Source: Escherichia coli
GTDB taxonomy: Bacteria > Pseudomonadota > Gammaproteobacteria > Enterobacterales > Enterobacteriaceae
Direction: 5' to 3' (one strand)
DNA length: 64,000 nt
Assembly (NCBI RefSeq): GCF_030013595.1
Contig: NZ_CP122768.1
Part shown: piece by piece, positions 2,766 through 33,669 of the stretch
Numbering within the stretch: position 1 is the first letter of the stretch
How the letters are laid out: each line of letters opens with the position of its first letter
Translations under genes and position numbers: made by a program
Notes under the pieces: generated by a model
What the model was told of the DNA's origin: nothing
What the model saw: the letters and a program-made list of their open reading frames with translations, nothing else
Databases searched by the model: none

Positions 2766-3887
2766 ATGGAATACCAACTCACTCTTAACTGGCCCGATTT
2801 TCTTGAACGTCACTGGCAGAAACGCCCGGTGGTGTTAAAACGCGGCTTTAATAATTTTATTGACCCAATCTCTCCAGACGAGTTGGCGGGTCTGGCGATG
2901 GAAAGCGAAGTCGACAGTCGACTGGTCAGTCATCAGGATGACAAATGGCAGGTCAGCCACGGTCCATTCGAAAGCTACGATCATCTCGGTGAAACTAACT
3001 GGTCATTGTTAGTGCAAGCAGTGAACCACTGGCATGAGCCGACCGCCGCGCTGATGCGACCGTTCCGTGAACTACCGGACTGGCGTATTGATGATCTGAT
3101 GATCTCTTTTTCCGTACCTGGCGGCGGCGTCGGCCCGCATCTCGATCAGTACGACGTGTTTATCATTCAGGGTACCGGACGTCGTCGCTGGCGAGTGGGC
3201 GAAAAGCTGCAAATGAAACAGCACTGCCCGCACCCGGATCTGTTACAGGTTGATCCGTTCGAAGCCATCATTGATGAAGAACTGGAGCCAGGCGATATTC
3301 TTTATATTCCGCCAGGATTCCCCCATGAAGGCTACGCGCTGGAAAATGCGATGAACTATTCCGTCGGTTTTCGCGCACCAAATACGCGGGAACTGATTAG
3401 CGGATTTGCCGATTATGTGCTGCAACGTGAACTGGGCGGCAACTACTACAGCGATCCGGATGTCCCACCTCGCGCTCATCCTGCGGACGTTCTACCGCAA
3501 GAAATGGATAAACTGCGTGAGATGATGCTTGAATTGATCAACCAGCCGGAACACTTTAAACAGTGGTTTGGCGAGTTTATATCCCAGTCACGTCATGAAC
3601 TGGATATCGCGCCACCAGAGCCGCCTTATCAGCCGGATGAAATCTACGATGCGCTAAAACAAGGTGATGTGCTGGTGCGCCTGGGTGGTCTGCGCGTATT
3701 GCGCATTGGCGACGACGTGTATGCCAATGGTGAGAAGATCGATTCCCCGCACCGTCCGGCACTGGATGCGCTCGCCAGCAACATTGCGCTGACCGCGGAG
3801 AATTTTGGTGATGCATTGGAAGATCCGTCATTCCTCGCGATGCTCGCAGCGCTGGTCAATAGCGGGTATTGGTTCTTCGAAGGGTAA
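2766..3887 (+). CDS. roxA: ribosomal protein-arginine oxygenase (JmjC/cupin family, YcfD/RoxA)
   Basis: ORF 2757-3887; start placed at the internal Met of MEYQLTLNW; synteny between phoQ and pepT. Confidence 0.85.
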   Translation: MEYQLTLNWPDFLERHWQKRPVVLKRGFNNFIDPISPDELAGLAMESEVDSRLVSHQDDKWQVSHGPFESYDHLGETNWSLLVQAVNHWHEPTAALMRPFRELPDWRIDDLMISFSVPGGGVGPHLDQYDVFIIQGTGRRRWRVGEKLQMKQHCPHPDLLQVDPFEAIIDEELEPGDILYIPPGFPHEGYALENAMNYSVGFRAPNTRELISGFADYVLQRELGGNYYSDPDVPPRAHPADVLPQEMDKLREMMLELINQPEHFKQWFGEFISQSRHELDIAPPEPPYQPDEIYDALKQGDVLVRLGGLRVLRIGDDVYANGEKIDSPHRPALDALASNIALTAENFGDALEDPSFLAMLAALVNSGYWFFEG

Positions 3888-3935: not shown

Positions 3936-5162
3936 TTACTTCCGTTGCGCCGTCAACTCGGCAATACGGACGATCACCTGCACCGCTTTTTCCATACCTT
4001 CCAGAGTCACAAACTCATGCTTACCATGATAGTTGTAACCGCCAGTGAACAGGTTCGGGCACGGTAATCCCATAAACGACAACTGCGCGCCGTCGGTACC
4101 GCCGCGGATCGGTTTCAGTTCCGGTTCAATATCGCAGTCACGCATCGCCTGCTGGGCGATATCGAGAATATGCGGATGCTCAACCACTTTCTCGCGCATA
4201 TTGTAGTAACTGTCTTCAATCACCAGTTCAATGTAGCAATCAGGGTGTAACCCTTTGCCCACTTTTTTGGCGATCTCCATCATTTTGCGTTTACGCGCTT
4301 CAAACTGCTTACGATCAAAATCACGAATGATGTAGTGCATATCGGCCCGTTCAACGGTGCCTTTCATGCTCGCCAGGTGATAGAAACCTTCATAGCCTTC
4401 TGTCATTTCCGGGCTTTCATTTGCCGGAACTTCCGCATGAATACGTGCCGCCAGCGAAAGCGCATTTACCATCACTCCTTTCGCCGTGCCCGGGTGAACA
4501 TTGTTACCGACAATTTTGATATTGACCGACGCGGCGTTGAAGTTTTCAAACTCCAGTTCGCCTACGCCACCACCATCAACGGTGTAAGCCCAGCGGGCAT
4601 CGAAGGCGTCAACATCAAAATGTTTCGCCCCTTTGCCCACTTCTTCATCCGGGGTAAAGGCGACGCGAATATCACCATGCGGAATGTTTTTTTGTTGTAA
4701 TACCGCCAGCGCGGTCATGATTTCTGCAATACCTGCTTTGTCATCGGCACCTAACAAGGTTTTACCATCGGTGGTAATCAGCGTCTGACCCAGTAGCTGA
4801 TGCAGCACCGGGAACATAACCGGTGATAAAACTTCATCGCCGATACCCAGCGCAATATCGCCACCGCGATAGTTTTCAACAATTTGCGGATTCACATTTT
4901 TGCCGCTGCAATCCGGTGAGGTATCCACATGAGAAATAAAGCCAATCGCCGGGATATCGCCAGGGACGTTAGCCGGTAACGTCGCCATCAAAGTGCCCTT
5001 CTCACTTAAGGTCACATTGATAAGCCCCATCTCTTCGAGCTGCTCTTTCAGCAGATGCAATAACTTCCATTGGCCTTCCGTGCTGGGAACCTGTCTCACC
5101 CCTGCCTTTGATTGGGTATCCAGAGACACGTAGTTCAAAAATCGCTCAAGTAGTTTATCCAT
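3936..5162 (-). CDS. pepT: peptidase T (tripeptide aminopeptidase, M20 family)
   Basis: ORF 3936-5204; start placed at MDKLLERFL; M20 metal-binding motifs; synteny. Confidence 0.9.
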
Positions 5163-5411
5163 GTAGTCACCCTCACTTTTTGTGACAACATTATTAAGAA
5201 GCAAGAAAAGACAAACATTGCGTCAGGTCACTTTTACCCCTGCAAGCGGGAATATTTATCAGCATTACCTTAATGAATATAAAGCTAAGCCAGTAATTCA
5301 CAACAAAGATTGGCGATTCAAGCGGTTTGCCGTAGAATTACCGCCCTCATTAAGAGTCACCAAGGTGGTTAACCACAAACCCCGCATCGGTAAGCCATCC
5401 GTTGCGTTTAC

Positions 5412-6548
5412 ATGGGACAGAGTAAAAAATTGAATAAACAACCGAGTTCGCTTTCACCGCTGGTGCAATTGGCGGGAATTCGCAAATGCTTTGATGGTAA
5501 AGAGGTCATTCCCCAGCTGGATCTGACTATCAACAATGGCGAGTTCCTCACGCTGCTTGGCCCTTCTGGCTGCGGTAAAACAACCGTTCTTCGCCTGATT
5601 GCAGGTCTGGAAACTGTTGATTCCGGACGCATCATGCTGGATAACGAGGACATCACCCACGTTCCGGCGGAAAACCGCTATGTGAACACTGTTTTCCAAA
5701 GCTACGCACTTTTCCCCCACATGACCGTGTTCGAAAATGTGGCCTTTGGGTTACGCATGCAAAAAACCCCCGCTGCTGAAATTACGCCCCGCGTGATGGA
5801 AGCCCTGCGGATGGTGCAGCTGGAAACCTTCGCTCAACGCAAACCGCATCAGCTCTCTGGTGGTCAACAGCAACGCGTCGCCATTGCCCGCGCGGTGGTT
5901 AACAAGCCTCGTCTGTTGTTGCTGGATGAGTCGCTCTCAGCGCTGGATTACAAACTGCGCAAGCAAATGCAGAACGAGCTGAAAGCGTTACAGCGTAAGC
6001 TTGGCATTACATTCGTCTTCGTGACTCACGACCAGGAAGAAGCACTCACCATGTCGGACAGGATTGTGGTGATGCGCGATGGTCGCATTGAGCAAGACGG
6101 CACGCCGCGTGAAATCTATGAAGAGCCGAAAAACCTGTTTGTTGCTGGGTTTATTGGCGAAATCAATATGTTTAACGCCACTGTCATCGAACGTCTAGAC
6201 GAGCAGCGCGTACGCGCCAACGTTGAAGGCCGCGAATGTAATATCTACGTTAACTTCGCCGTTGAACCGGGGCAAAAACTGCATGTTCTGCTGCGCCCGG
6301 AAGACTTACGTGTTGAAGAGATTAACGACGACAACCACGCTGAAGGGCTGATTGGTTACGTTCGCGAGCGTAACTACAAAGGCATGACGCTGGAGTCGGT
6401 TGTTGAACTGGAAAATGGCAAGATGGTGATGGTCAGCGAATTCTTCAATGAAGACGATCCTGACTTTGACCACTCTCTCGACCAAAAAATGGCCATTAAT
6501 TGGGTAGAAAGCTGGGAGGTCGTACTGGCTGATGAAGAACACAAGTAA
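5412..6548 (+). CDS. potA: spermidine/putrescine ABC transporter ATP-binding protein
   Basis: 378-aa ORF with Walker [10 protein letters not shown] and ABC signature LSGGQQQR. Confidence 0.95.
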
Positions 6549-19947: not shown

Positions 19948-20497
19948 CACCGGTGCCCTCTGTTTTCCAGATAAGACGATAATCCCGCTCATGTTTCTTG
20001 CCGGTTTCCGGAGCTTTCCCCAGCCAGACTTCCTGTAAAGGCGCACCAGCCGGAACCTCGAACGGATCTTCTCCGACAGGAATATCCTGTTCAAAAGAAA
20101 CGCGGAAAACGATGTAGTCATCCAGAAGCCGGTCGAAGGTATCCACCTCAGCATCAATAAAAACAGCCGGATCAACGTTATCCAGCCCGAACGTGGCCCC
20201 CTCAATCCAGTCAGATAAATCCATCGCCAGACAACGGGCAAAAATCTGCGGTTTTGGCACGTTTTCCGTCTTCCCGGCCCGGTCTGTCACCACAAACAGA
20301 TCACATTTCAGCGTGACCCGCGTCTGCCCGTCGGCAAACTGAGCCTTGTCCCAGCCCGGTACATCCACAAACACGGCAGGCGTCACCAGTTGCGTCACTT
20401 TTTCCGGATACTCATCGGCATCTTCCACCCAGGGAATTTGTTTCAGACTGTCAATCACCGCCTGATGCCAGGCGCCCATCATCAATGGCTCCATCAC
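19931..20497 (-). CDS. virion morphogenesis / head-tail joining protein (unassigned)
   Basis: 188-aa ORF between head and baseplate modules. Confidence 0.4.
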   Translation of the reverse strand: MMEPLMMGAWHQAVIDSLKQIPWVEDADEYPEKVTQLVTPAVFVDVPGWDKAQFADGQTRVTLKCDLFVVTDRAGKTENVPKPQIFARCLAMDLSDWIEGATFGLDNVDPAVFIDAEVDTFDRLLDDYIVFRVSFEQDIPVGEDPFEVPAGAPLQEVWLGKAPETGKKHERDYRLIWKTEGTGDESGR

Positions 20498-21216
20498 TCC
20501 AGCCCCTTAAATACCCGGAATTTCAGTTCATGCTCAAAATTTTTCAGGATCAGTGCTTCCGCATCCGGAAAAACAAAATCCTCTATACGGTTCAGCATGG
20601 CTTCATAAATATCAATTTCCGCTTCACGCACCCTCCGTCGTCCGGATGCCTGTCGGATCAGTATCGTTTTCCTTTTTGATATACGTCCGTTACGATTTTC
20701 CGCTTCGAACTGGTTGATAAAGGCATCATCCGTTGACCAGGTGGTGACAGGCAGGGATTCCCCGGCAGGTTTAAAACTGATCTCCCGAGCCTTCCTGCGG
20801 CTGGAAGCTGGTGCAAAACGCCCCCGCTCATCGCGCAACTGATGGCGTTCGCCGCGTCGTCCCCCACTGATGCGTCCGCGCAGATCGCGTACTTTGATGG
20901 CGTTCAGACCGAACCATACCTTCGCCTCATCAAACTCATCACCGTTACGACGAATGATAAAATTATGCAGAACACGCTTTTTGATCATTTTCTGACTGCG
21001 TGGCGCAACCTGTTTTTTAAACTCTGCCAGGGCCTTCATCCGCAGTGCAGACGCGGCTCTTTTCAGCGCCACGCCCCAGGCTTTACGGATCTGACTTTTT
21101 GACCCACCCAGTTTAGCGATAATTTTCAGCACCTCATCTTCATCAATATCGACAACGAGGTTTCGTGCCAGCCGTCGCTGCCGGGCACTGCTTCGTTCAT
21201 GCTCTCTGACTGCCAT
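20494..21216 (-). CDS. virion morphogenesis protein (unassigned)
   Basis: Track ORF 20494-21276; start placed at internal Met MAVREHER; basic, Arg-rich. Confidence 0.4.
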   Translation of the reverse strand: MAVREHERSSARQRRLARNLVVDIDEDEVLKIIAKLGGSKSQIRKAWGVALKRAASALRMKALAEFKKQVAPRSQKMIKKRVLHNFIIRRNGDEFDEAKVWFGLNAIKVRDLRGRISGGRRGERHQLRDERGRFAPASSRRKAREISFKPAGESLPVTTWSTDDAFINQFEAENRNGRISKRKTILIRQASGRRRVREAEIDIYEAMLNRIEDFVFPDAEALILKNFEHELKFRVFKGLE

Positions 21217-26875: not shown

Positions 26876-28792
26876 TTATCCTCCACTCAGTGCAGCCGCG
26901 ATTTCTTCCAGACTCATCTCATCGTCGTCCTGCTCATCTCTTCTGGCACGGGCCAGTGCTTCAAGATCCAGCTGCCACCGCTGAACTGAAATACGCAGGG
27001 CAGCATAGGCATATACCAGGCAGTCGAGGGCTTCGTTGCGTCGCCCTTTTTTATCCCACAGCAGTTTCACCCTGCCATTAACCACCTTCTCCACCAGCTC
27101 TTCCGCCACGATCTGACGCGCCTCTTCTTCCGAAAAAATGTCGGGGTTATCAGGAAAACGGAAGGTGTACGGGGCGGCTTCACTGGCAGAGACCACTGGC
27201 AGGGCAAAACGGGCGTACAGCATTTCCTTGACGGTATCGGAGCCCACCTCACACAAAAACACACCACGCTGGTTGCGCTTTTTGGGCATGGTGATCACCG
27301 GCTTGCCGTACACCGATGCCCCTTTTATGGGAAGCACAAAAAAAGTGCCGTGTTTCCTTGAACGCTGATACACAATGTCCTGGTCGATACCACCGGTATC
27401 CCAGCAGACACGGGAAATGGAAATTTCAGTACCGTCAGCATGACGATATTTTTTCCGGATCACCGTATCAACACGTTTAAGGGTGTCCTCGTCTTCCGGT
27501 CGCCCCATGATAATTTGCTTATCAATCAGAAAGGCTTCTTCGCCGGGAGCCCAGCCCCAGACATAAATTTCATAGCGATCTTTCTGGGAGTCGATCCCGG
27601 CGGTCAGGTAAACCACCCGCAGGGGAACCTGCGCACCATAGTGGCAGACCTTTTCCAGTAACAACTCAAAACTCAGCTTTTCTGCCACAGCCTCTTCATA
27701 GGGCTCCCCGAGCGTGGTGTTAATAAACGTCTTGACGCCGTTCGGATCCTTCAGCGCATCCAGCCAGTCATAAACAATCTGTACCCAGGTGGTGAACGGA
27801 CTATACGCCGTCCAGATGTGGAAAGTGACGGAGCGCGGCGGTGGCATCTCCTCATCGCCGGCGCTGTAAAATGCCAGGCCGTCGCGCGTCCACATCCCGG
27901 TATTGTCACAAATCCAGCGCCCGTCGGTCTGGTCAAGTTCCGACTGCCGGATCACACAGCCATTATGTTCACACAGGTAATACACCGTTTCCGGTTTACC
28001 CTTCTCCCATTTCAGGCCAAATGGCGTCGCATCATCGCCAAACTTCAGATACTGGGCCTCCCCGCAATGAGGGCAAGGGACATAAAACCGCATGAAATGC
28101 GCTGATTCATTTGCGGCTTTCTCAATCTGGCAGGAGCCTTTAATTTTTGGCGTTGAGCCACGTATGGATTTAGGCCATACCGAGCCTTCGATACGCTTAT
28201 CGCCAAGCAGCGTCGGCGAACCTTCTTTTTCCACATCCGGTTCAAACGAGGAGAGTTCGTCATAGCAGACCACATCCACAGATTTTTCACGGTAGTTTTT
28301 AGCAGCGGCGCCGCCAAGGCACCAGAAACCCACACCGGAGGAAAAACGCTTCAGGGTGAGTGTATTATCGCGGTGCTTTCTTCCGAACCATGGAGCCAGC
28401 TCCAGCAATGCAGGAACATCCCTGATCGTTGGCTCAACATGAGATTTCATGAAATCTTCTGCAGCAGAATCTGTTGGCTGAAAAAGCAGACTGTTACGGG
28501 ATTTATGCTCAATAAAATAAGCCTCCACCCCCAACAGCATTTTGGTGTAACCAACGCGCGCCGATTTAATCAGATTAACGGTGCGGATCCGGTCATTTCC
28601 CATGCTGTTCATAATGGCAACCTGAAACGGCAGGGTTTCCCATTGTCCGGGAGTGTATGAAGATTCTTTCGGCAGATAATAATGTTGATCAGCCCACTGA
28701 ACCGTCGTCAGTGGAACCGGAATATTGAGAGATAAAAGCCCTGTAGCTATCGCACCGGCTGCATTAGCTGCCTTCTGTGCGTCTGAAATCAT
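26876..28792 (-). CDS. terminase large subunit (lambda gpA-like)
   Basis: Track ORF 26876-28834; strong resemblance to lambda A (YYLPKES, KSARVGY.KMLLGV.AYFIEHK, Walker-like motifs); start placed at MISDAQ. Confidence 0.9.
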
Positions 28793-29312
28793 CAATCCAC
28801 CTGCCCACGTTTTCACCGGCTTTAGCTGCAACATTGGAGGCTTTCGCGATTTCAGTTTTCACCACATCAAGGTGTGACGGTGAAATATCCGGATATTTAC
28901 GCTGTAATGTCAGCGGCACACGTACAAGTATCCCCGAAATCTCCTGTGCCACACGTTGCAGAATGAAGGTAAACAATTCTGTTTCCAGCACCAGCCCTTC
29001 TTCACGGGCATTTTTCAGCTCCTGTGCGTCAGCCTGTGCTTTGGTTAACCGGTAGCGTTCATAGTCAATGGTGCCGGGTTGTAAATCTGATTCTGCAGTC
29101 GCACGCAAATCTTCCAGTTCTTTGCGGAGCTTTTCGTTTTCGATATCTTTTTCCCGCTGCGCATACCACTCAATGGCTTCTGCAGTATTGAACATGGCTT
29201 CGATACCTTTGCCTCCCCCCGACAAAACTCTCAGCCCCTGACTTTGCCAGCCAGTGATTGTTCTGACATCGCACTCAAAAATTTCCGCCAGTTTCTTTTT
29301 GTTAACCTTCAC
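28764..29312 (-). CDS. terminase small subunit (lambda Nu1-like)
   Basis: 182-aa ORF; N-terminus [12 protein letters not shown]…GGGKG resembles lambda Nu1 HTH and ATP-reactive region. Confidence 0.85.
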
Positions 29313-29612
29313 GGCACATATTCCTCACAAAAAGAAGAAAGGATCTCAAAACGCTTTTTTCAGCGAAAAATCACCGCTGCCAGATCCTTTCTTTTTTTAA
29401 GAAAACTCTATTAAACAACAGGTTAGCCAGAAGAAGAACGGATCTGCTTTTTCCCTGAAAATTTTCATAAATAGCGCGTTTTTGCGCGTCCCCAGACCCT
29501 CGGTGTTTCAGGTTCCAGAAAGGACCCGTTGAAATGGGAGTAATTATCATTTACACGCTCTAACACCTGCATTATCGCAACCCCTCACACAGAAGGGCTG
29601 CTGTAATGCCTG

Positions 29613-30011
29613 TTACTCACGAATCAGGCGAGCACTCTTACCATTCATTTCAATACGCGAATACTGCGGTTTACCATCAATGATGTCTGTCATCACGAAC
29701 ATCTCACCCGGCTGCAGTTCAACTACTGCGCCTTCCGGCAATTTCATGCAGGCAAATACCGGACAACCAGGATGACGATCATCTTCTGTTGCTTCCAGCA
29801 TTGACTCACCAAACCACTCCGTCGTGGCGCGACCATCAGCTGCTTTGTAGTGGATCAAGTACTGGTTTTCGCCATCCGCATACTGCGCGCGGGCTTTAAC
29901 CTCACCCCATTCATCACTGATGCGCATCTCCACCAGTTGAGACAACTCAAACTTAAACGGAGCAGCATCAGCACCAATTACAATCGGTTTGCTTTCTGTT
30001 TTTTCCATCAT
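29613..30011 (-). CDS. hypothetical protein (moron between cos region and lysis genes)
   Basis: 132-aa ORF with no family assignable by eye. Confidence 0.4.
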   Translation of the reverse strand: MMEKTESKPIVIGADAAPFKFELSQLVEMRISDEWGEVKARAQYADGENQYLIHYKAADGRATTEWFGESMLEATEDDRHPGCPVFACMKLPEGAVVELQPGEMFVMTDIIDGKPQYSRIEMNGKSARLIRE

Positions 30012-30180
30012 CGTCTCCTGATATCAAAGCCCGTCGCCGCACCGGGCACTGATCAACATTTGAGTATTCGCGGCGACAGAAAGAATTTATTTTATTGAGT
30101 AGCCACAAACACAGAATTTCATGCTTTCCGGACGCTGGCGCACTCTTCATTTTTCAGCAAAATATTCTGCTCTTACAGGC

Positions 30181-30360
30181 GATCAGTTCTGCAGACACTG
30201 CCGAACACCGTCGACAATTTCACAGACCAGAGAAGCGGTATCGAAAAGCTGGCGCGCTTTATCCAGGCTGACGCATCCCACCAATAAAAAAGGCACCAGT
30301 ATCGCTACCCATTTCGCCGCCGTTCGCGGCATTCTGTGTGTCCAGTGTTTTCGCGTCATA
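30181..30360 (-). CDS. putative small lipoprotein (59 aa; lipobox LVGC), not on the ORF track
   Basis: Hand translation of the minus strand: MTRKHWTHRMPRTAAKWVAILVPFLLVGCVSLDK…; ATG overlaps the stop of an upstream 37-codon ORF. Confidence 0.3.
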
Positions 30361-30605
30361 TCACCACCAACGCACAGCCCAAATCAGAACAGCGACCGCC
30401 ACAAGGCGAATTGCAAAGGCCGCAGCCCTTGTCAAATCAAGGCTCGCGGGAGTTTCCACTTCAATACCTTTCATAATGGACAACCTCAAAAAGAATCTTT
30501 TATACTTTCCCACGAGGATTTTCTCCGTACTCACTACTCACAATTTCCTCTCTGACGTGAAAACTCAAAACCCCGGACTGTTCCAGCAGCCGGGGTTTTG
30601 TTTTT

Positions 30606-30956
30606 TTATTTACTGCCCTGGGTGCGGCATCTGGCTATTTCACCCCTGGCTTTACTGTCACCGCGACAGATACAACGCACCGTGTCTCCGGTCAACGTGG
30701 TAATGTAAGCCTCATCCTCTTTTTCTACCGGAATACATGGAATATCCCCGCCCCGGCAATACTCAATTTTTGCTGCAAGATGAGTGTCACGCGGATAGAA
30801 CTCCAGACGATACATATCTCCCAGGACATGCACTTCCTCAACCTGGCGACCATCCTCAGTTACGGTAATTTTTTTCAGTGCGTACATACGTACCTCCGTT
30901 CTTTCGTTTTTTGAGCAATAAAAAAGCCGCTCATGGCGGCCCTGTATGTTTTGCAA
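30606..30956 (-). CDS. hypothetical Cys-rich protein downstream of the endolysin
   Basis: Track ORF 116 aa (true start may be the internal MYALKK); no TM segment, so not a canonical spanin. Confidence 0.4.
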   Translation of the reverse strand: MQNIQGRHERLFYCSKNERTEVRMYALKKITVTEDGRQVEEVHVLGDMYRLEFYPRDTHLAAKIEYCRGGDIPCIPVEKEDEAYITTLTGDTVRCICRGDSKARGEIARCRTQGSK

Positions 30957-30957
30957 G

Positions 30958-31341
30958 CTATCGCTTCAATTGAAAATGAGGCCCGTCTTTCAGTGTTTTC
31001 CAGTCCCCGCCCCATTCGATGGCAGTTCCCAGCTCTGCGGCAGCCTGCTTAAATGCCTGCGCGATTTTCTCGTACAGAGGCCAGTCCCATGACACCTGGC
31101 TGCCAACCCAGGCCACAACATCCACCGCATCACCGGTCAGGTGGCGGCTGTTCATGGTCTGGCTCTTACCTTCTGCAACCAGCTGTTTCTGGCGTTCTTT
31201 CGTGCGCAGGCCCTCCGTAATACCGAAATCAACCTCCGACAGTTCAAGGGCGCGGCGAACTACAGCAACCAGCTGTGGTTTGACGCCTTCCAGATTTTTC
31301 TCGCTCCGGCGGCTGAATCTGAATTTACCCGACATATTCAC
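30958..31341 (-). CDS. endolysin, peptidase M15 family (L-alanyl-D-glutamate peptidase type)
   Basis: 127-aa ORF with H…D…H zinc-peptidase-like spacing (SRHLTGDAVDV…) as in T5-type endolysins. Confidence 0.7.
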   Translation of the reverse strand: MNMSGKFRFSRRSEKNLEGVKPQLVAVVRRALELSEVDFGITEGLRTKERQKQLVAEGKSQTMNSRHLTGDAVDVVAWVGSQVSWDWPLYEKIAQAFKQAAAELGTAIEWGGDWKTLKDGPHFQLKR

Positions 31342-31574
31342 CTCAACAATGGAAAGATTCTTGTGACGTTCCCGCGTGCGCGTATCACCAGCACGCAGAA
31401 CAGCAGATTAAAAAACACATCCAGCCAGCCCGTTGCTAACGGGCGACCACACAGATAGCTGAGAGGCGAAAAGGCATACAGCAGCGTCAGCAGCCAGGCC
31501 AGCCATGACATCAGCGGTTTATGCCTGGAATCGCGACGACGATAAAAAAGAGCGTCAGCACGATAACCGTGCAT
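31338..31574 (-). CDS. small membrane protein in the lysis cassette (holin/antiholin-like)
   Basis: 78-aa hydrophobic ORF overlapping the endolysin start. Confidence 0.45.
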   Translation of the reverse strand: MHGYRADALFYRRRDSRHKPLMSWLAWLLTLLYAFSPLSYLCGRPLATGWLDVFFNLLFCVLVIRARGNVTRIFPLLR

Positions 31575-31601
31575 AACGCCACATTCAGTAATCCGGGAAG
31601 G

Positions 31602-31994
31602 TTACTTAACATTACCGCCTCCTCCGCCTCGCAGGCGGGAGAACCGTCCTGACACCAGCGATGCGATATCCTGCTGGTGGATGAACGACAGAATCTTCAC
31701 CGACACCACAGACACCAGCACTGCACACAGCGCGTCGACAGATTTACTGTGAAGCCCCAGTTTTTCGACCAGATAAGACGCCATCACATCCGCCCCCAGT
31801 ACGCCGATAATAAACGACACCAGAAAATGCGCCGCCACCCGCCAGACAGAAAGCGCCTGCGGCATCGTTGCCACAAACAACGCCCCCGCGAACGCACCAA
31901 ACACAATCCCGAAATCCGTTCCGGTGAACAGCCCGAATACCGTCGCCCCTCCGAGCGCAGCCGCCGTGCCGGAACCGGATAAGGGTTCAGACAT
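31602..31994 (-). CDS. putative holin
   Basis: Track ORF 31602-32027 trimmed to MSEPLSG; multiple Gly/Ala-rich TM segments, first gene of the late lysis block. Confidence 0.55.
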   Translation of the reverse strand: MSEPLSGSGTAAALGGATVFGLFTGTDFGIVFGAFAGALFVATMPQALSVWRVAAHFLVSFIIGVLGADVMASYLVEKLGLHSKSVDALCAVLVSVVSVKILSFIHQQDIASLVSGRFSRLRGGGGGNVK

Positions 31995-32015
31995 ACTTTT
32001 TTTCTCCTGTAAATA

Positions 32016-32045
32016 AAAAAGGGCCACCAGCGGCCCGTAAAAAAC
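32016..32045 (-). terminator. intrinsic terminator-like hairpin (gggccgctggtggccc + T-run on the minus strand)
   Basis: Perfect GC stem followed by ttttttattt on the minus strand just upstream of the holin; candidate tR'-like site. Confidence 0.5.
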
Positions 32046-32159
32046 AACACCCCGTCAAAGGCACCCGCAGATACCTTTTGTGTGGTGTATTCAGATTTGA
32101 CATACGCTGAGCAGGGCGAAGAAATGAAAAAGGCCCGCAGTAGCGAGCCATGAAGAAAC

Positions 32160-32195
32160 TGAATAAAAAAAAACCGCCTGGTACGGCGGTTAAGA
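32160..32195 (-). terminator. intrinsic terminator-like hairpin (ccgccgtaccaggcgg + T9 on the minus strand)
   Basis: Stem-loop followed by nine T residues on the minus strand, downstream of the tRNA cluster. Confidence 0.55.
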
Positions 32196-32453
32196 TGAAT
32201 TTCCAGGTTTTGCTTAATACGTGATTAATCTCAACGTTTTTTATAGATGTTAACAACATCGGAATGATGCATCACCGGCCCTGTCAGGAAATACAACATC
32301 TCCACCGATAATGCACCATTACGCTGTTGTAAAAAGACAGCACTGGGCTGTAACCGATATCACGTATTACAGAACAGGATGTGGATAAAGATTCAGGAAA
32401 ACATCCCACATATAATATGTCAGTGCCCAAAACAACCTGGTATCGTCTACTGC

Positions 32454-32528
<75 letters not shown>

Positions 32529-32531
32529 ATA

Positions 32532-32607
<76 letters not shown>

Positions 32608-32609
32608 AC

Positions 32610-32686
32610 TGGACCGCCACCGGGGACTCGAACCTCGCACACTCAACTTAAAGGGTTGACGCTCTTTCCCGATGAGCTAGTGGCGG
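32610..32686 (-). tRNA. tRNA with nominal anticodon UUU (Lys) but atypical anticodon loop (C at position 33)
   Basis: Acceptor ccgccac/gtggcgg, GGTTCGAGTCC T-loop, anticodon arm tcaac-CCTTTAA-gttga; one mismatch in the T-stem. Confidence 0.45.
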
Positions 32687-32687
32687 T

Positions 32688-32763
32688 TGGTGGCCCTTGC
32701 TGGATTTGAACCAGCGACCTGGCGATTATGAGTCGCTCGCTCTCACCACTGAGCTAAAGGGCC
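32688..32763 (-). tRNA. tRNA-Ile2 (anticodon CAU, ileX/ileZ-like)
   Basis: Sequence closely resembles E. coli minor tRNA-Ile (GGCCC.TTAGCTCAGTGGT.AGAGC…GACTCATAATCGC…GGTTCAA.TCC…GGGCCACCA). Confidence 0.7.
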
Positions 32764-32973
32764 GGGCGCAGGATAATAACGTTACAAAATCAATGTTGCA
32801 AGCATTCAAAAATCACCTGGTTAAAAATCACCCTTACTTCCTCCACCAGCGCATTCACCATGTCTATCCGAGATAAGTGGCACAAAAAAAACCACATTTG
32901 GGCGGGTTTTGTTTGCTTTTGCCATCACGTACAAAATCGGCAAAATATCAGATTTGCATAAAATATATGCCTT

Positions 32974-33669
32974 TCAATCTACTTTTGCAACACTTTGCTT
33001 TGAAAATGCCGCCTTTTGTTTTGAACGCGTTCTCATTACAAACAATAAAGCCCCACTATCCAGTCGGTAAAAAATGTGTTTCATTGCAACCCAGTGACGA
33101 GTAAATGTTTTGGACCAGTTTTTAGTTGTCACTCCCGCCAGTAATGCCAGCTCCTGGTATTCATAACCTTCCCCACCAAAAAGTTCTGCTTTTACTGCCT
33201 GCGCCGCCAGCCAGATTAATTTTTTCAGGCGTTCCTGCGTTTTCCCTGCAATTTTTCTGGTACCGGATTGAGTATTAAATTCGTTCCACGCCCACTGTGT
33301 TATCGCGATCTGATGCTCCCAGCAAATGTTTCCGCCGTAACACCACAACAACCAGGCTTTATGATGCTCTTCAAGAGACAGCACAGCCCGCCGCCATGAT
33401 GATGTCGAAAACTCAACCGGGCTGACCAGGGCAATTGATGAGCCTTTCGCCAGTGATTGTTTTCCCGGGATTGGTGGATTATCCCGCGTTATCATTTTTC
33501 CAGTCACTTCATCGCGGTACCGGATTTTTTTACGCCTGTAACGCCCTGTATCAAACATGGCATTCTCCTGCCAGGCTTCAAGCTGACCTTTTGTTGCCCC
33601 ACTCAAATCAGCGGTGGCGATAATGAGCTGCTCGCGCACAAACTGTAAATACTGGTTATTCATGCGCAC
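32974..33669 (-). CDS. putative late-gene antiterminator (Q-like)
   Basis: 231-aa ORF immediately upstream of the tRNA/lysis block and downstream of rusA. Confidence 0.5.
   Translation of the reverse strand: MRMNNQYLQFVREQLIIATADLSGATKGQLEAWQENAMFDTGRYRRKKIRYRDEVTGKMITRDNPPIPGKQSLAKGSSIALVSPVEFSTSSWRRAVLSLEEHHKAWLLWCYGGNICWEHQIAITQWAWNEFNTQSGTRKIAGKTQERLKKLIWLAAQAVKAELFGGEGYEYQELALLAGVTTKNWSKTFTRHWVAMKHIFYRLDSGALLFVMRTRSKQKAAFSKQSVAKVD

Follow-up and report, generated by a model that had tools for sequence, protein, structure and literature searches.

The stretch of DNA analysed here (the window) comprises 64,000 nucleotides of an Escherichia coli genome and contains a lambdoid prophage of the phiP27 lysis type, whose lysis genes all lie on the minus strand. 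The order on this strand is two holins, an M15 endolysin, a 93-aa open reading frame (ORF), a small membrane peptide, a 58-aa prolipoprotein, a 132-aa ORF, the cos region and a Nu1/gpA terminase. The first holin (31602..31994, 130 aa from the ATG of MSEPLSG) is of the Phage_holin_8 type and matches phrog_198 (holin, E = 2e-41), with PF16931 found on its homologues; deletion of a homologous 130-aa holin abolished antibiotic-induced release of Stx2e (PMC12571312). The second, of the Phage_holin_3_7 type (31338..31612; phrog_217, holin; PF05449 on homologues), is frameshifted as read here, its T-run at 31544-31549 counting six T in the window and seven in UMNF18, ETEC1732 and phiP27, so that the ORF is split. 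The endolysin (30958..31341; phrog_465, endolysin, E = 1e-75; PF13539 on homologues) is of the L-alanyl-D-glutamate peptidase type and has no signal-anchor. Its stop codon is abutted by a terminator-like minus-strand hairpin (30923..30943), identified by a consensus scan as an 8-bp stem with a T-run, and a further one (30560..30595, CCCCGG...CCGGGG plus TTTTGAGTTTT; read by eye and partly present in the scan) lies on the same strand 3' of the 93-aa ORF. An Rfam search of 28500-33500 returned nothing beyond four tRNAs and a sub-threshold GcvB-like match. The cassette is carried by 309 of 5,426 complete E. coli genomes and is also present in Stx2e and Stx2k phages.

Four conserved small ORFs lie between the endolysin and the cos region

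Every small ORF proposed in the initial annotation could be located on the minus strand, and each matches a PHROG family without assigned function: the 93-aa ORF (30606..30887) phrog_33497 (E = 2e-55), the small membrane peptide (30361..30513) phrog_4493/phrog_1115, the prolipoprotein (30183..30359) phrog_7528 (E = 1e-34) and the 132-aa ORF (29613..30011) phrog_1935 (E = 1.5e-70). All four are listed as hypothetical proteins in the RefSeq (PGAP) annotation of near-identical E. coli prophages and have zero matches in Pfam, NCBIfam and PADLOC, the empty PADLOC result speaking against membership in a defence or toxin system. They are conserved among related loci, with dN/dS values of 0.15-0.23 in the annotated frame as compared to 0.12 for the endolysin, and are thus under purifying selection and more than chance ORFs. 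Other reading frames mostly yield values of about 1-2.5 and contain stop codons, the exception being the antisense frame with common third codon positions (0.24-0.30).

The 93-aa ORF encodes a soluble protein, which reaches 116 aa only with an upstream TTG start. Its dN/dS is 0.15 and five cysteines are invariant across 8 unique sequences; it is confined to about 13 of the roughly 100 related loci and has no significant match in Pfam or the PDB. The 132-aa ORF (dN/dS 0.16) has homologues across Enterobacterales with a conserved N-terminal core of ~95 aa, and belongs to no Pfam family. An AF2 model of moderate confidence (pLDDT 74-81 at residues 20-75) shows a small beta-barrel, for which only weak SH3/Tudor/HspQ-like fold matches were obtained (best 5ycq, E = 2.8e-3), so that we draw no function from it. 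Both ORFs are best explained as accessory genes in a lysis-packaging recombination hot spot, in keeping with the cargo option that the initial annotation had offered for the small ORFs.

The non-coding spacer between lipoprotein and 132-aa ORF (30012..30182, minus strand) is conserved, with a mean pairwise difference of 0.049 across 34 loci versus ~0.18 at synonymous positions of the flanking genes. Beyond the 132-aa ORF, the gap at 29313..29612 adjoins the Nu1-like terminase small subunit. The suggestion that these ~300 non-coding base pairs represent a cos region is borne out when their minus strand is aligned to the joined ends of circularised lambda: cosQ, cosN and cosB all align, a cosN-like 12-mer lies at 29488-29499, and the block CGCTATTTATGAAAATTTTC is common to the window and lambda.

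The cassette lacks an Rz/Rz1 spanin pair

We searched the window by tblastn with lambda-type (lambda Rz), 933W-type and DUF2570-type (phage P88) i-spanins and found no significant Rz-like ORF; the sole match, which pairs the Rz transmembrane domain (TMD) with the hydrophobic C-terminal end of the small peptide (E = 0.36), is attributable to chance. A scan of 29300-32300 for ORFs with a single N-terminal TMD detected none within or 3' of the cassette, which agrees with the initial observation that no Rz-like protein follows the endolysin. Neither the cassette nor the rest of the window nor any of nine representative loci encodes a conserved partner that sits in the inner membrane and extends a domain into the periplasm, and no gene adjacent to, overlapping or enclosing that of the lipoprotein specifies a single N-in/C-out TMD together with the substantial periplasmic (coiled-coil) domain of an i-spanin. 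Likewise, the complete phiP27 genome contains no Rz-like match, and close to its lysis genes the lipoprotein is the only small lipobox ORF. The tblastn searches together with the lipobox and N-terminal TMD scans thus uncovered no canonical spanin pair within the cassette, elsewhere in the window, in the nine loci or in the phiP27 genome.

Among Stx phages, Rz is present in 277 of 279, and the stx2e (phiP27-type) group forms a separate cluster C of two members (PMC8136144); we infer that the two phages lacking Rz are these two. The absence of Rz on its own is no proof of a substitute, since lysis under laboratory conditions can suffice without spanins.

The prolipoprotein shares features with o-spanins

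The initial annotation had described a lipoprotein of 59 codons at ~30181-30360; its strand and LVGC lipobox stand, while the ORF spans 58 codons at 30183-30359. The real start appears to be Met1 rather than the internal Met10 chosen by PGAP. A long basic n-region leads to the lipobox with Cys29, followed by a mature part of 30 residues with a net charge of -1 that ends in ...GVRQCLQN. Two further cysteines, C46 and C55, are invariant together with C29 and are retained in distant members of the family; as in two-component spanins, they would be available in the periplasm for disulfide linkage. Residue +2 is Val in the window and Val, Ala, Thr, Gly, Glu or Ser across the family; since it is never Asp, sorting to the outer membrane is predicted. 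Selection acts on both parts of the protein (dN/dS 0.19 overall, 0.22 for the signal peptide and 0.17 for the mature part). Across all 64 kb there is just one more lipobox ORF, which looks spurious.

A remote-homologue search of 1.84 billion proteins yielded only 22 cluster representatives, all of them small lipoproteins with the same pattern. Apart from phrog_7528 the lipoprotein has no relatives in Pfam, NCBIfam or the PDB, and its AF2 model, a single helix of low confidence (pLDDT 65), is uninformative. It shows no sequence homology to spanin families, and no hydrophobic segment is present at its C-terminus, so the combination of lipobox and C-terminal TMD that defines unimolecular spanins is not found. 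Literature searches turned up no paper that cites the accessions of this protein and nothing relevant on o-spanins lacking an i-spanin.

The label 'unassigned' is not fully accurate, as a homologue from phiP27 has been catalogued as an o-spanin, in the singleton entry 'PhiP27' (Kongari et al. 2018, PMC6139136). This protein (20706-20861, 51 aa, 30 periplasmic residues) is a direct homologue, 90% identical to the window lipoprotein, which has in common with o-spanins the lipobox, the lack of Asp at +2 and invariant periplasmic cysteines. The i-spanin of the same entry is TTG-initiated, 64 aa long and located at 20348-20542 (PMC6139136). The segment encoding it is missing from the window and confined to loci of the phiP27 type; the i-spanin itself belongs to no PHROG family, and its ORF runs antisense to a 90-aa ORF of phrog_36812. 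We therefore reject it as a conserved partner and consider it probably a spurious call, in which case one entry of a reference spanin catalogue needs correction.

The lipoprotein gene is a constant member of variable lysis cassettes

To place the lipoprotein in its genomic context, we compared 102 lipoprotein-bearing sequences, comprising the window and partly redundant related loci from E. coli, Salmonella, Citrobacter, Cronobacter and metagenomes, a phylogenetically narrow sample of Enterobacteriaceae. Within this set the gene is the last member of the holin-endolysin cassette in 102 of 102 sequences, the position in or beside the lysis cassette that spanins occupy. The distance from the M15 endolysin stop to the lipoprotein start is 14 nt in about 30 loci, distant members (35-50% identity) start 0-3 nt past the endolysin stop, and in Citrobacter the start overlaps the stop of a GH108 endolysin (ATGA). 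The lipoprotein remains constant while the holins vary (Phage_holin_8 plus 3_7, or 3_1) and is found beside endolysins of at least two unrelated families, M15_4 and GH108/PG_binding_3; a further 131-aa endolysin has no Pfam record, yet matched the M15 query by tblastn. Minimal cassettes from Citrobacter and metagenomes consist of holin, endolysin and lipoprotein, that is, of one gene per envelope layer. An intact Rz was never found beside an intact lipoprotein in these loci. Phage GER2, the exception in carrying both, has intact Rz/Rz1 and a frameshifted lipoprotein copy, and in phage P88 a homologous M15 endolysin is followed by the DUF2570 i-spanin.

The lambda bor gene does lie between the lysis genes and cos, as had been noted initially, and the lipoprotein might accordingly serve lysogenic conversion or superinfection exclusion in the manner of Bor, Cor and Llp, its gene merely lying at the mosaic junction of lysis and packaging genes. 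Small outer-membrane lipoproteins are frequent cargo of temperate phages, relatives carry obvious cargo at neighbouring positions (an ais-like phosphatase, Ivy, KilA-N), and in the window the 93-aa insert and the two terminator-like hairpins separate the lipoprotein from the endolysin, a layout expected of cargo genes. Bor itself differs, however, in its size of about 97 aa, its opposite strand and its description as serum-resistance cargo, and no homology of the lipoprotein to Bor/Cor or any other named family was found in PHROGs, NCBIfam or the Pfam record. Moreover, the lipoprotein gene is always co-oriented with the endolysin gene and translationally coupled to it in most relatives, wherever nothing is inserted; it tracks the lysis cassettes across different packaging modules (Nu1/gpA, HNH + Terminase_4, Terminase_6) and decays where Rz/Rz1 is present. 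A crude consensus scan of the coding strand from 29200 to 32400 revealed no sigma-70-like promoter, which fits late-only expression. Taken together, these observations make a cargo or surface-exclusion role of the lipoprotein unlikely.

It is also conceivable that the lipoprotein is a lysis accessory that does not breach the outer membrane itself, for instance a regulator in the periplasm that times or counteracts lysis, and that these phages manage without an outer-membrane disruptor. Small accessory lysis proteins are known, for example Lcc6 of LambdaSo, and in about 13-15% of phages infecting Gram-negative bacteria no spanin has been identified. The combination with several unrelated holins and endolysins, however, speaks against regulation through specific contact with one particular holin or endolysin, and we regard such a role as very unlikely.

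The upstream membrane peptide does not pair specifically with the lipoprotein

The small peptide has a basic N-terminus and a C-terminal hydrophobic helix. As initially proposed, a 37-codon ORF with these hydrophobic C-terminal residues exists at 30361-30474, but translation probably starts at GTG 30513 instead of ATG 30474, giving 50 aa: the upstream extension KYKxxxLRL is conserved, and a Cronobacter homologue has ATG at that codon. Its dN/dS is 0.23; as the antisense frame is also stop-free, this value alone leaves the strand unsettled.

Together, peptide and lipoprotein could form a miniature two-component system with the peptide as the inner half. In about half of the loci the gene of a single-TMD peptide, either the 37/50-aa peptide or, in other loci, an unrelated 44-aa peptide of phrog_4906, precedes the lipoprotein by 1-4 nt, and the order of peptide and lipoprotein is that of 'separated' spanins. 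Non-canonical topologies, moreover, were left out of the spanin search of Kongari et al. 2018 (PMC6139136). In contrast, about 45% of loci, including phiP27 and the minimal Citrobacter and metagenomic cassettes, have no such peptide, and the predicted periplasmic parts of the peptides (~3-11 residues) are far too short to span the periplasm in combination with the 30 residues of the mature lipoprotein. Furthermore, the 37/50-aa peptide is followed by either the lipoprotein or Rz/Rz1 across the same 1-nt junction (TGAtATG), and stands 5' of complete Rz/Rz1 in thousands of contigs as part of one very common cassette. It is therefore not a specific partner of the lipoprotein, and the two-component arrangement appears quite unlikely. 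The earlier proposal of an unusual spanin equivalent is supported for the lipoprotein by position and co-occurrence; a membrane-spanning two-component system does not fit, since a conserved protein of the inner membrane with a domain in the periplasm is lacking.

Discussion

On balance, the sequence data favour the reading that in phiP27-type cassettes the outer-membrane step of lysis is carried out by the lone 58-aa lipoprotein in the role of Rz/Rz1. Late transcription, antiterminated by Q, would proceed through both hairpins flanking the 93-aa insert. The holins would open the inner membrane, and the endolysin, whose family assignment to M15 is clear, would cut the murein. The prolipoprotein would be exported, lipidated at Cys29 and, following the sequence rules for sorting, delivered to the inner leaflet of the outer membrane. 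There its 29-residue tail, a helix-prone segment and a loop bounded by the two invariant cysteines, would accumulate and, once the murein is gone, compromise the outer membrane, with the small hydrophobic peptide as an optional accessory of this step.

Lambda Rz/Rz1 occupy the same place in the cassette, 3' of the endolysin and 5' of the packaging genes, and Rz1, too, is a small lipoprotein of the outer membrane; its mature part has 40 residues and includes a periplasmic cysteine that matters for function. The lipoprotein described here differs in lacking an Rz-like inner-membrane subunit, sequence similarity, a proline-rich tract and an embedded or overlapping gene architecture, and its mature part is predicted to be helical. 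The unimolecular spanin T1 gp11 is also encoded by one gene that closes the lysis cassette, and it carries a lipoprotein signal at its N-terminus; in comparison, our candidate is less than half the size and lacks the defining C-terminal TMD.

The lysis or release lipoproteins of colicins and other bacteriocins are very small, with a mature part of about 28-33 residues. Their lipopeptide pattern matches the candidate in size and lipobox, and they are produced in an SOS-induced terminal event, in which they make the outer membrane permeable with no partner in the inner membrane. There is, however, no sequence similarity, no Pfam domain such as Lysis_col was found on any member of the lipoprotein family, and the two extra cysteines are absent from the colicin proteins. 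The disruptin gp28 of phiKT, so far the single alternative described for phages without spanins, is similarly one small protein replacing spanins, but it is a cationic, amphipathic peptide without lipid anchor, whereas the window lipoprotein is predicted to be lipid-anchored. With its short mature part and net negative charge, the latter thus resembles neither spanins nor disruptin. By analogy with the colicin lysis lipoproteins and the phiKT disruptin, local destabilisation of the outer membrane would be the more likely mode of action than membrane fusion of the Rz/Rz1 type, given that the tail falls far short of the inner membrane and that a conserved partner there is lacking.

More tentatively, with the phiP27 i-spanin taken as spurious, a lone cysteine-stapled lipopeptide of 30 residues might constitute a third kind of outer-membrane disruptor besides spanins and disruptins, replacing Rz/Rz1 in a widespread group of enterobacterial lambdoid prophages including Stx2e-converting phages. 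The family would offer a genetically tractable E. coli case for breaching the outer membrane without spanins, and how efficiently lysis proceeds in Stx2e and Stx2k phages has a bearing on the release of both toxin and virions. Should the lipoprotein act on its own, biotechnology would gain a potentially interesting outer-membrane-active module of very small size. In thousands of E. coli prophages, the outer-membrane step appears to be accompanied by a second conserved small membrane peptide.

Organization of the lysis-to-packaging junction

The window contains, at 28.7-32.1 kb, the late junction between the lysis and packaging genes of a lambdoid E. coli prophage, which is transcribed from the minus strand. 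Among public sequences, prophages of porcine and human E. coli come closest (UMNF18, 99.4%; ETEC1732, 96%); the nearest named phages are the Stx2e phage phiP27 and phiSTEC1575-Stx2k. Just upstream of the lysis cassette, at 32454-32763, four tRNA genes (Gly-tcc, Thr-tgt, Lys-ttt, Met-cat) stand in tandem, the position at which Stx phages carry tRNAs and toxin genes. They are followed on the minus strand by holin 1 (31602-31994), holin 2 (31338-31612), an M15 endolysin (30958-31341), a terminator-like hairpin, a 93-aa ORF (30606-30887), a second such hairpin, a small hydrophobic peptide (30361-30474, or to 30513), a 58-aa lipoprotein (30183-30359), a non-coding spacer of 174 nt (30012-30182) and a 132-aa ORF (29613-30011). 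The subsequent 300-bp gap (29313-29612), beyond which lie Nu1-like and gpA-like terminase genes, aligns with lambda cosQ-cosN-cosB. The block CGCTATTTATGAAAATTTTC is identical in both, positions 29488-29499 carry a cosN-like GGGTCTGGGGAC, and the alignment supports the putative cos region proposed in the initial annotation. Terminator-like hairpins are over-represented in 29200-32400 (13 versus 3.7 expected from shuffles), with several between the tRNAs and holin 1 (32021-32191), an excess compatible with a Q-antiterminated late leader. Holin 2 is frameshifted in the window, with six T at 31544-31549 where UMNF18, ETEC1732 and phiP27 have seven, so that a 33-aa fragment and a 78-aa ORF stand in place of the 91-aa protein. 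The missing T is either an error in sequencing the homopolymer or a lesion that could impair lysis by the prophage.

The small ORFs are conserved as genes

All four small ORFs are annotated in RefSeq as hypothetical proteins. In PHROGs, each has one matching family, of unknown function (E 1e-16 to 1e-70), and none has a match in NCBIfam, Pfam or PADLOC. Using homologues extracted from about 90 loci, we calculated Nei-Gojobori dN/dS values of 0.15 for the 93-aa ORF, 0.23 for the peptide, 0.19 for the lipoprotein and 0.16 for the 132-aa ORF, compared with 0.12 for the endolysin. The other five frames give values of about 1-2.5 and contain stop codons, save the antisense frame sharing third codon positions, where low dN/dS is a known artefact. 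Judged by this difference between frames, the small ORFs noted initially encode proteins and evolve under purifying selection. The lipoprotein family has three invariant cysteines, that of the lipobox and two others. Two ORFs pass a lipobox filter in the whole 64 kb, one being the lipoprotein; the other, GTG-initiated and serine-rich, is implausible.

A lipoprotein in the position of Rz/Rz1

The initial annotation had found no recognisable Rz/Rz1 pair, correctly so: tblastn with lambda-type, 933W-type and DUF2570-type i-spanins gave no significant match in the window, nor in about 100 related loci or the complete phiP27 genome, phage GER2 excepted. A generic scan of the window and nine representative loci for ORFs with a single N-terminal TMD and at least 20-25 further residues returned only the lipoprotein precursor itself within the cassette and downstream of it.

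We sampled the best 80 of 272 IMG/VR relatives together with diverged homologues (Cronobacter, Citrobacter, E. coli, metagenomes). Among these about 100 loci, the order holin8-holin3_7-M15 endolysin leads to the lipoprotein directly in 35 (gap mostly 14 nt), via the small peptide in 10, and via the 93-aa ORF and the small peptide in 12, the window's type. With a GH108 endolysin after the same holins, either a 44-aa membrane peptide or the small peptide precedes the lipoprotein in about 26 loci. Coupling can be tighter still, with an ATGA stop/start overlap between GH108 and lipoprotein genes in three loci, a 3-nt gap in the holin3_1-M15-lipoprotein arrangement and no gap in one holin3_1-endolysin-lipoprotein cassette. 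Across the sampled loci the lipoprotein is the constant last gene of the cassette, while holins, endolysins and downstream packaging modules change, and the smallest form consists of holin, endolysin and lipoprotein. A reading of it as cargo or an exclusion lipoprotein is less well supported than one as an outer-membrane disruptor.

Rz is missing from every sampled lipoprotein locus save GER2, which has an intact Rz/Rz1 and, further downstream, a frameshifted lipoprotein copy that carries no annotation. Phage P88 has a homologous M15 endolysin followed by a DUF2570 i-spanin. In a published survey, Rz occurs in 277 of 279 Stx phages, and the two stx2e phages cluster apart, with a canonical endolysin and a classical holin (PMC8136144). 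Because of its cassette-terminal position and mutual exclusion with Rz, we place the lipoprotein in the Rz/Rz1 slot; the loci compared show where the gene lies, that it is coupled, exclusive of Rz and conserved, and that its product has the sequence features of an outer-membrane lipoprotein. Of the initial spanin-equivalent or Bor-type reading, the spanin position stands, but the protein is neither Bor-like nor a canonical two-component spanin. In GER2, the 933W/GER2-type N-terminal TMD of Rz (3092-3160 of the GER2 locus) has a stretch, LLLGC, that can itself be read as a lipobox.

The phiP27 spanin entry

Kongari et al. 2018 (PMC6139136) list phiP27 with a 'separated' two-component spanin whose combined periplasmic length of 62 residues is the shortest in their data set. 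According to their supplementary coordinates, the o-spanin is the homologue of the window's lipoprotein and the i-spanin a TTG-initiated 64-aa ORF. The segment carrying the latter is missing from the window and confined to phiP27-type loci. This ORF is narrowly distributed and has no PHROG family, whereas phrog_36812 is matched by a 90-aa ORF antisense to it, which also has a full-length homologue elsewhere at 46% identity. From this we conclude that the assignment as i-spanin is probably spurious and that the lipoprotein lacks a conserved spanning partner. A computational catalogue already contained the lipoprotein, then, but probably with the wrong partner. In the RefSeq phiP27 record an overlapping ORF in another frame (L32) is annotated in place of the lipoprotein gene (4570-4801 of our phiP27 locus, record 20630-20861); in several complete E. 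coli genomes the gene is unannotated, and PGAP elsewhere sets its start at the internal Met10.

The small peptide and the proposed mode of action

The small peptide belongs to an abundant family (phrog_4493/phrog_1115). One variant precedes the lipoprotein, another lies between lysozyme and canonical Rz/Rz1 (related loci L091-L095, 3501-3614); the latter occurs in more than 2,500 collection blocks, lysozyme-peptide-Rz being very common as a cassette in E. coli prophages. In either case the gene that follows begins 1 nt past the peptide's stop (TGGTGGTGAtATG). Because this junction is also found upstream of Rz/Rz1, the peptide is not a partner specific to the lipoprotein but an accessory travelling with the outer-membrane step. 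A mini two-component system of lipoprotein and peptide is less well supported than action of the lipoprotein alone. A basic segment KYKxxxLRL upstream of its ATG is kept in a diverged Cronobacter homologue, where the corresponding start is ATG, so that the window's peptide probably starts at GTG 30513 and comprises 50 rather than 37 aa. An unrelated 44-aa single-TMD peptide (phrog_4906, unknown function) takes the slot directly upstream of the lipoprotein in about 18 loci, most of which have GH108 endolysins (e.g. related loci L087 and L088, both 4862-4996).

The lipoprotein would be expressed late, lipidated, sorted by the Lol system and active at the outer membrane. An AF2 model was uninformative. 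A fusion machine spanning the periplasm is unlikely, given the 30-residue length of the mature peptide and the lack of a partner with a periplasmic domain. The most economical reading is that accumulated lipopeptide would locally destabilise the outer membrane, comparable in principle to colicin lysis lipoproteins and to disruptin, although the mature peptide, with a net charge of -1, is not cationic; a non-disruptive accessory is less well supported.

Variable genes and the conserved spacer

The Cys-rich 93-aa ORF, flanked by the two hairpins, occurs in about 13 of about 100 loci; five cysteines of its product are invariant, and no relative of known function was detected. A ~95-aa core of the 132-aa ORF is conserved across Enterobacterales, and the ORF product is predicted to form a small beta-barrel, with only weak matches to SH3/Tudor/HspQ-like folds. 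In relatives, the region of these two ORFs also holds ais-like phosphatase, KilA-N, Ivy or HNH genes, and the junction between endolysin and packaging genes is a recombination hot spot. UMNF18, at 99.4% identity, carries an extra insert between endolysin and 93-aa ORF (4216-5980 of its locus) that comprises a DUF1441 gene, an incomplete second copy of the M15 endolysin and, on the opposite strand, an ais-like LPS core heptose(II)-phosphate phosphatase; its copy of the 93-aa ORF is frameshifted. The spacer at 30012-30182, which has no Rfam match, may be a conserved regulatory element or RNA; it shows 4.9% divergence over 34 loci, versus about 18% at synonymous sites of the flanking genes, and contains an 8-bp inverted repeat (GTCGCCGC...GCGGCGAC).
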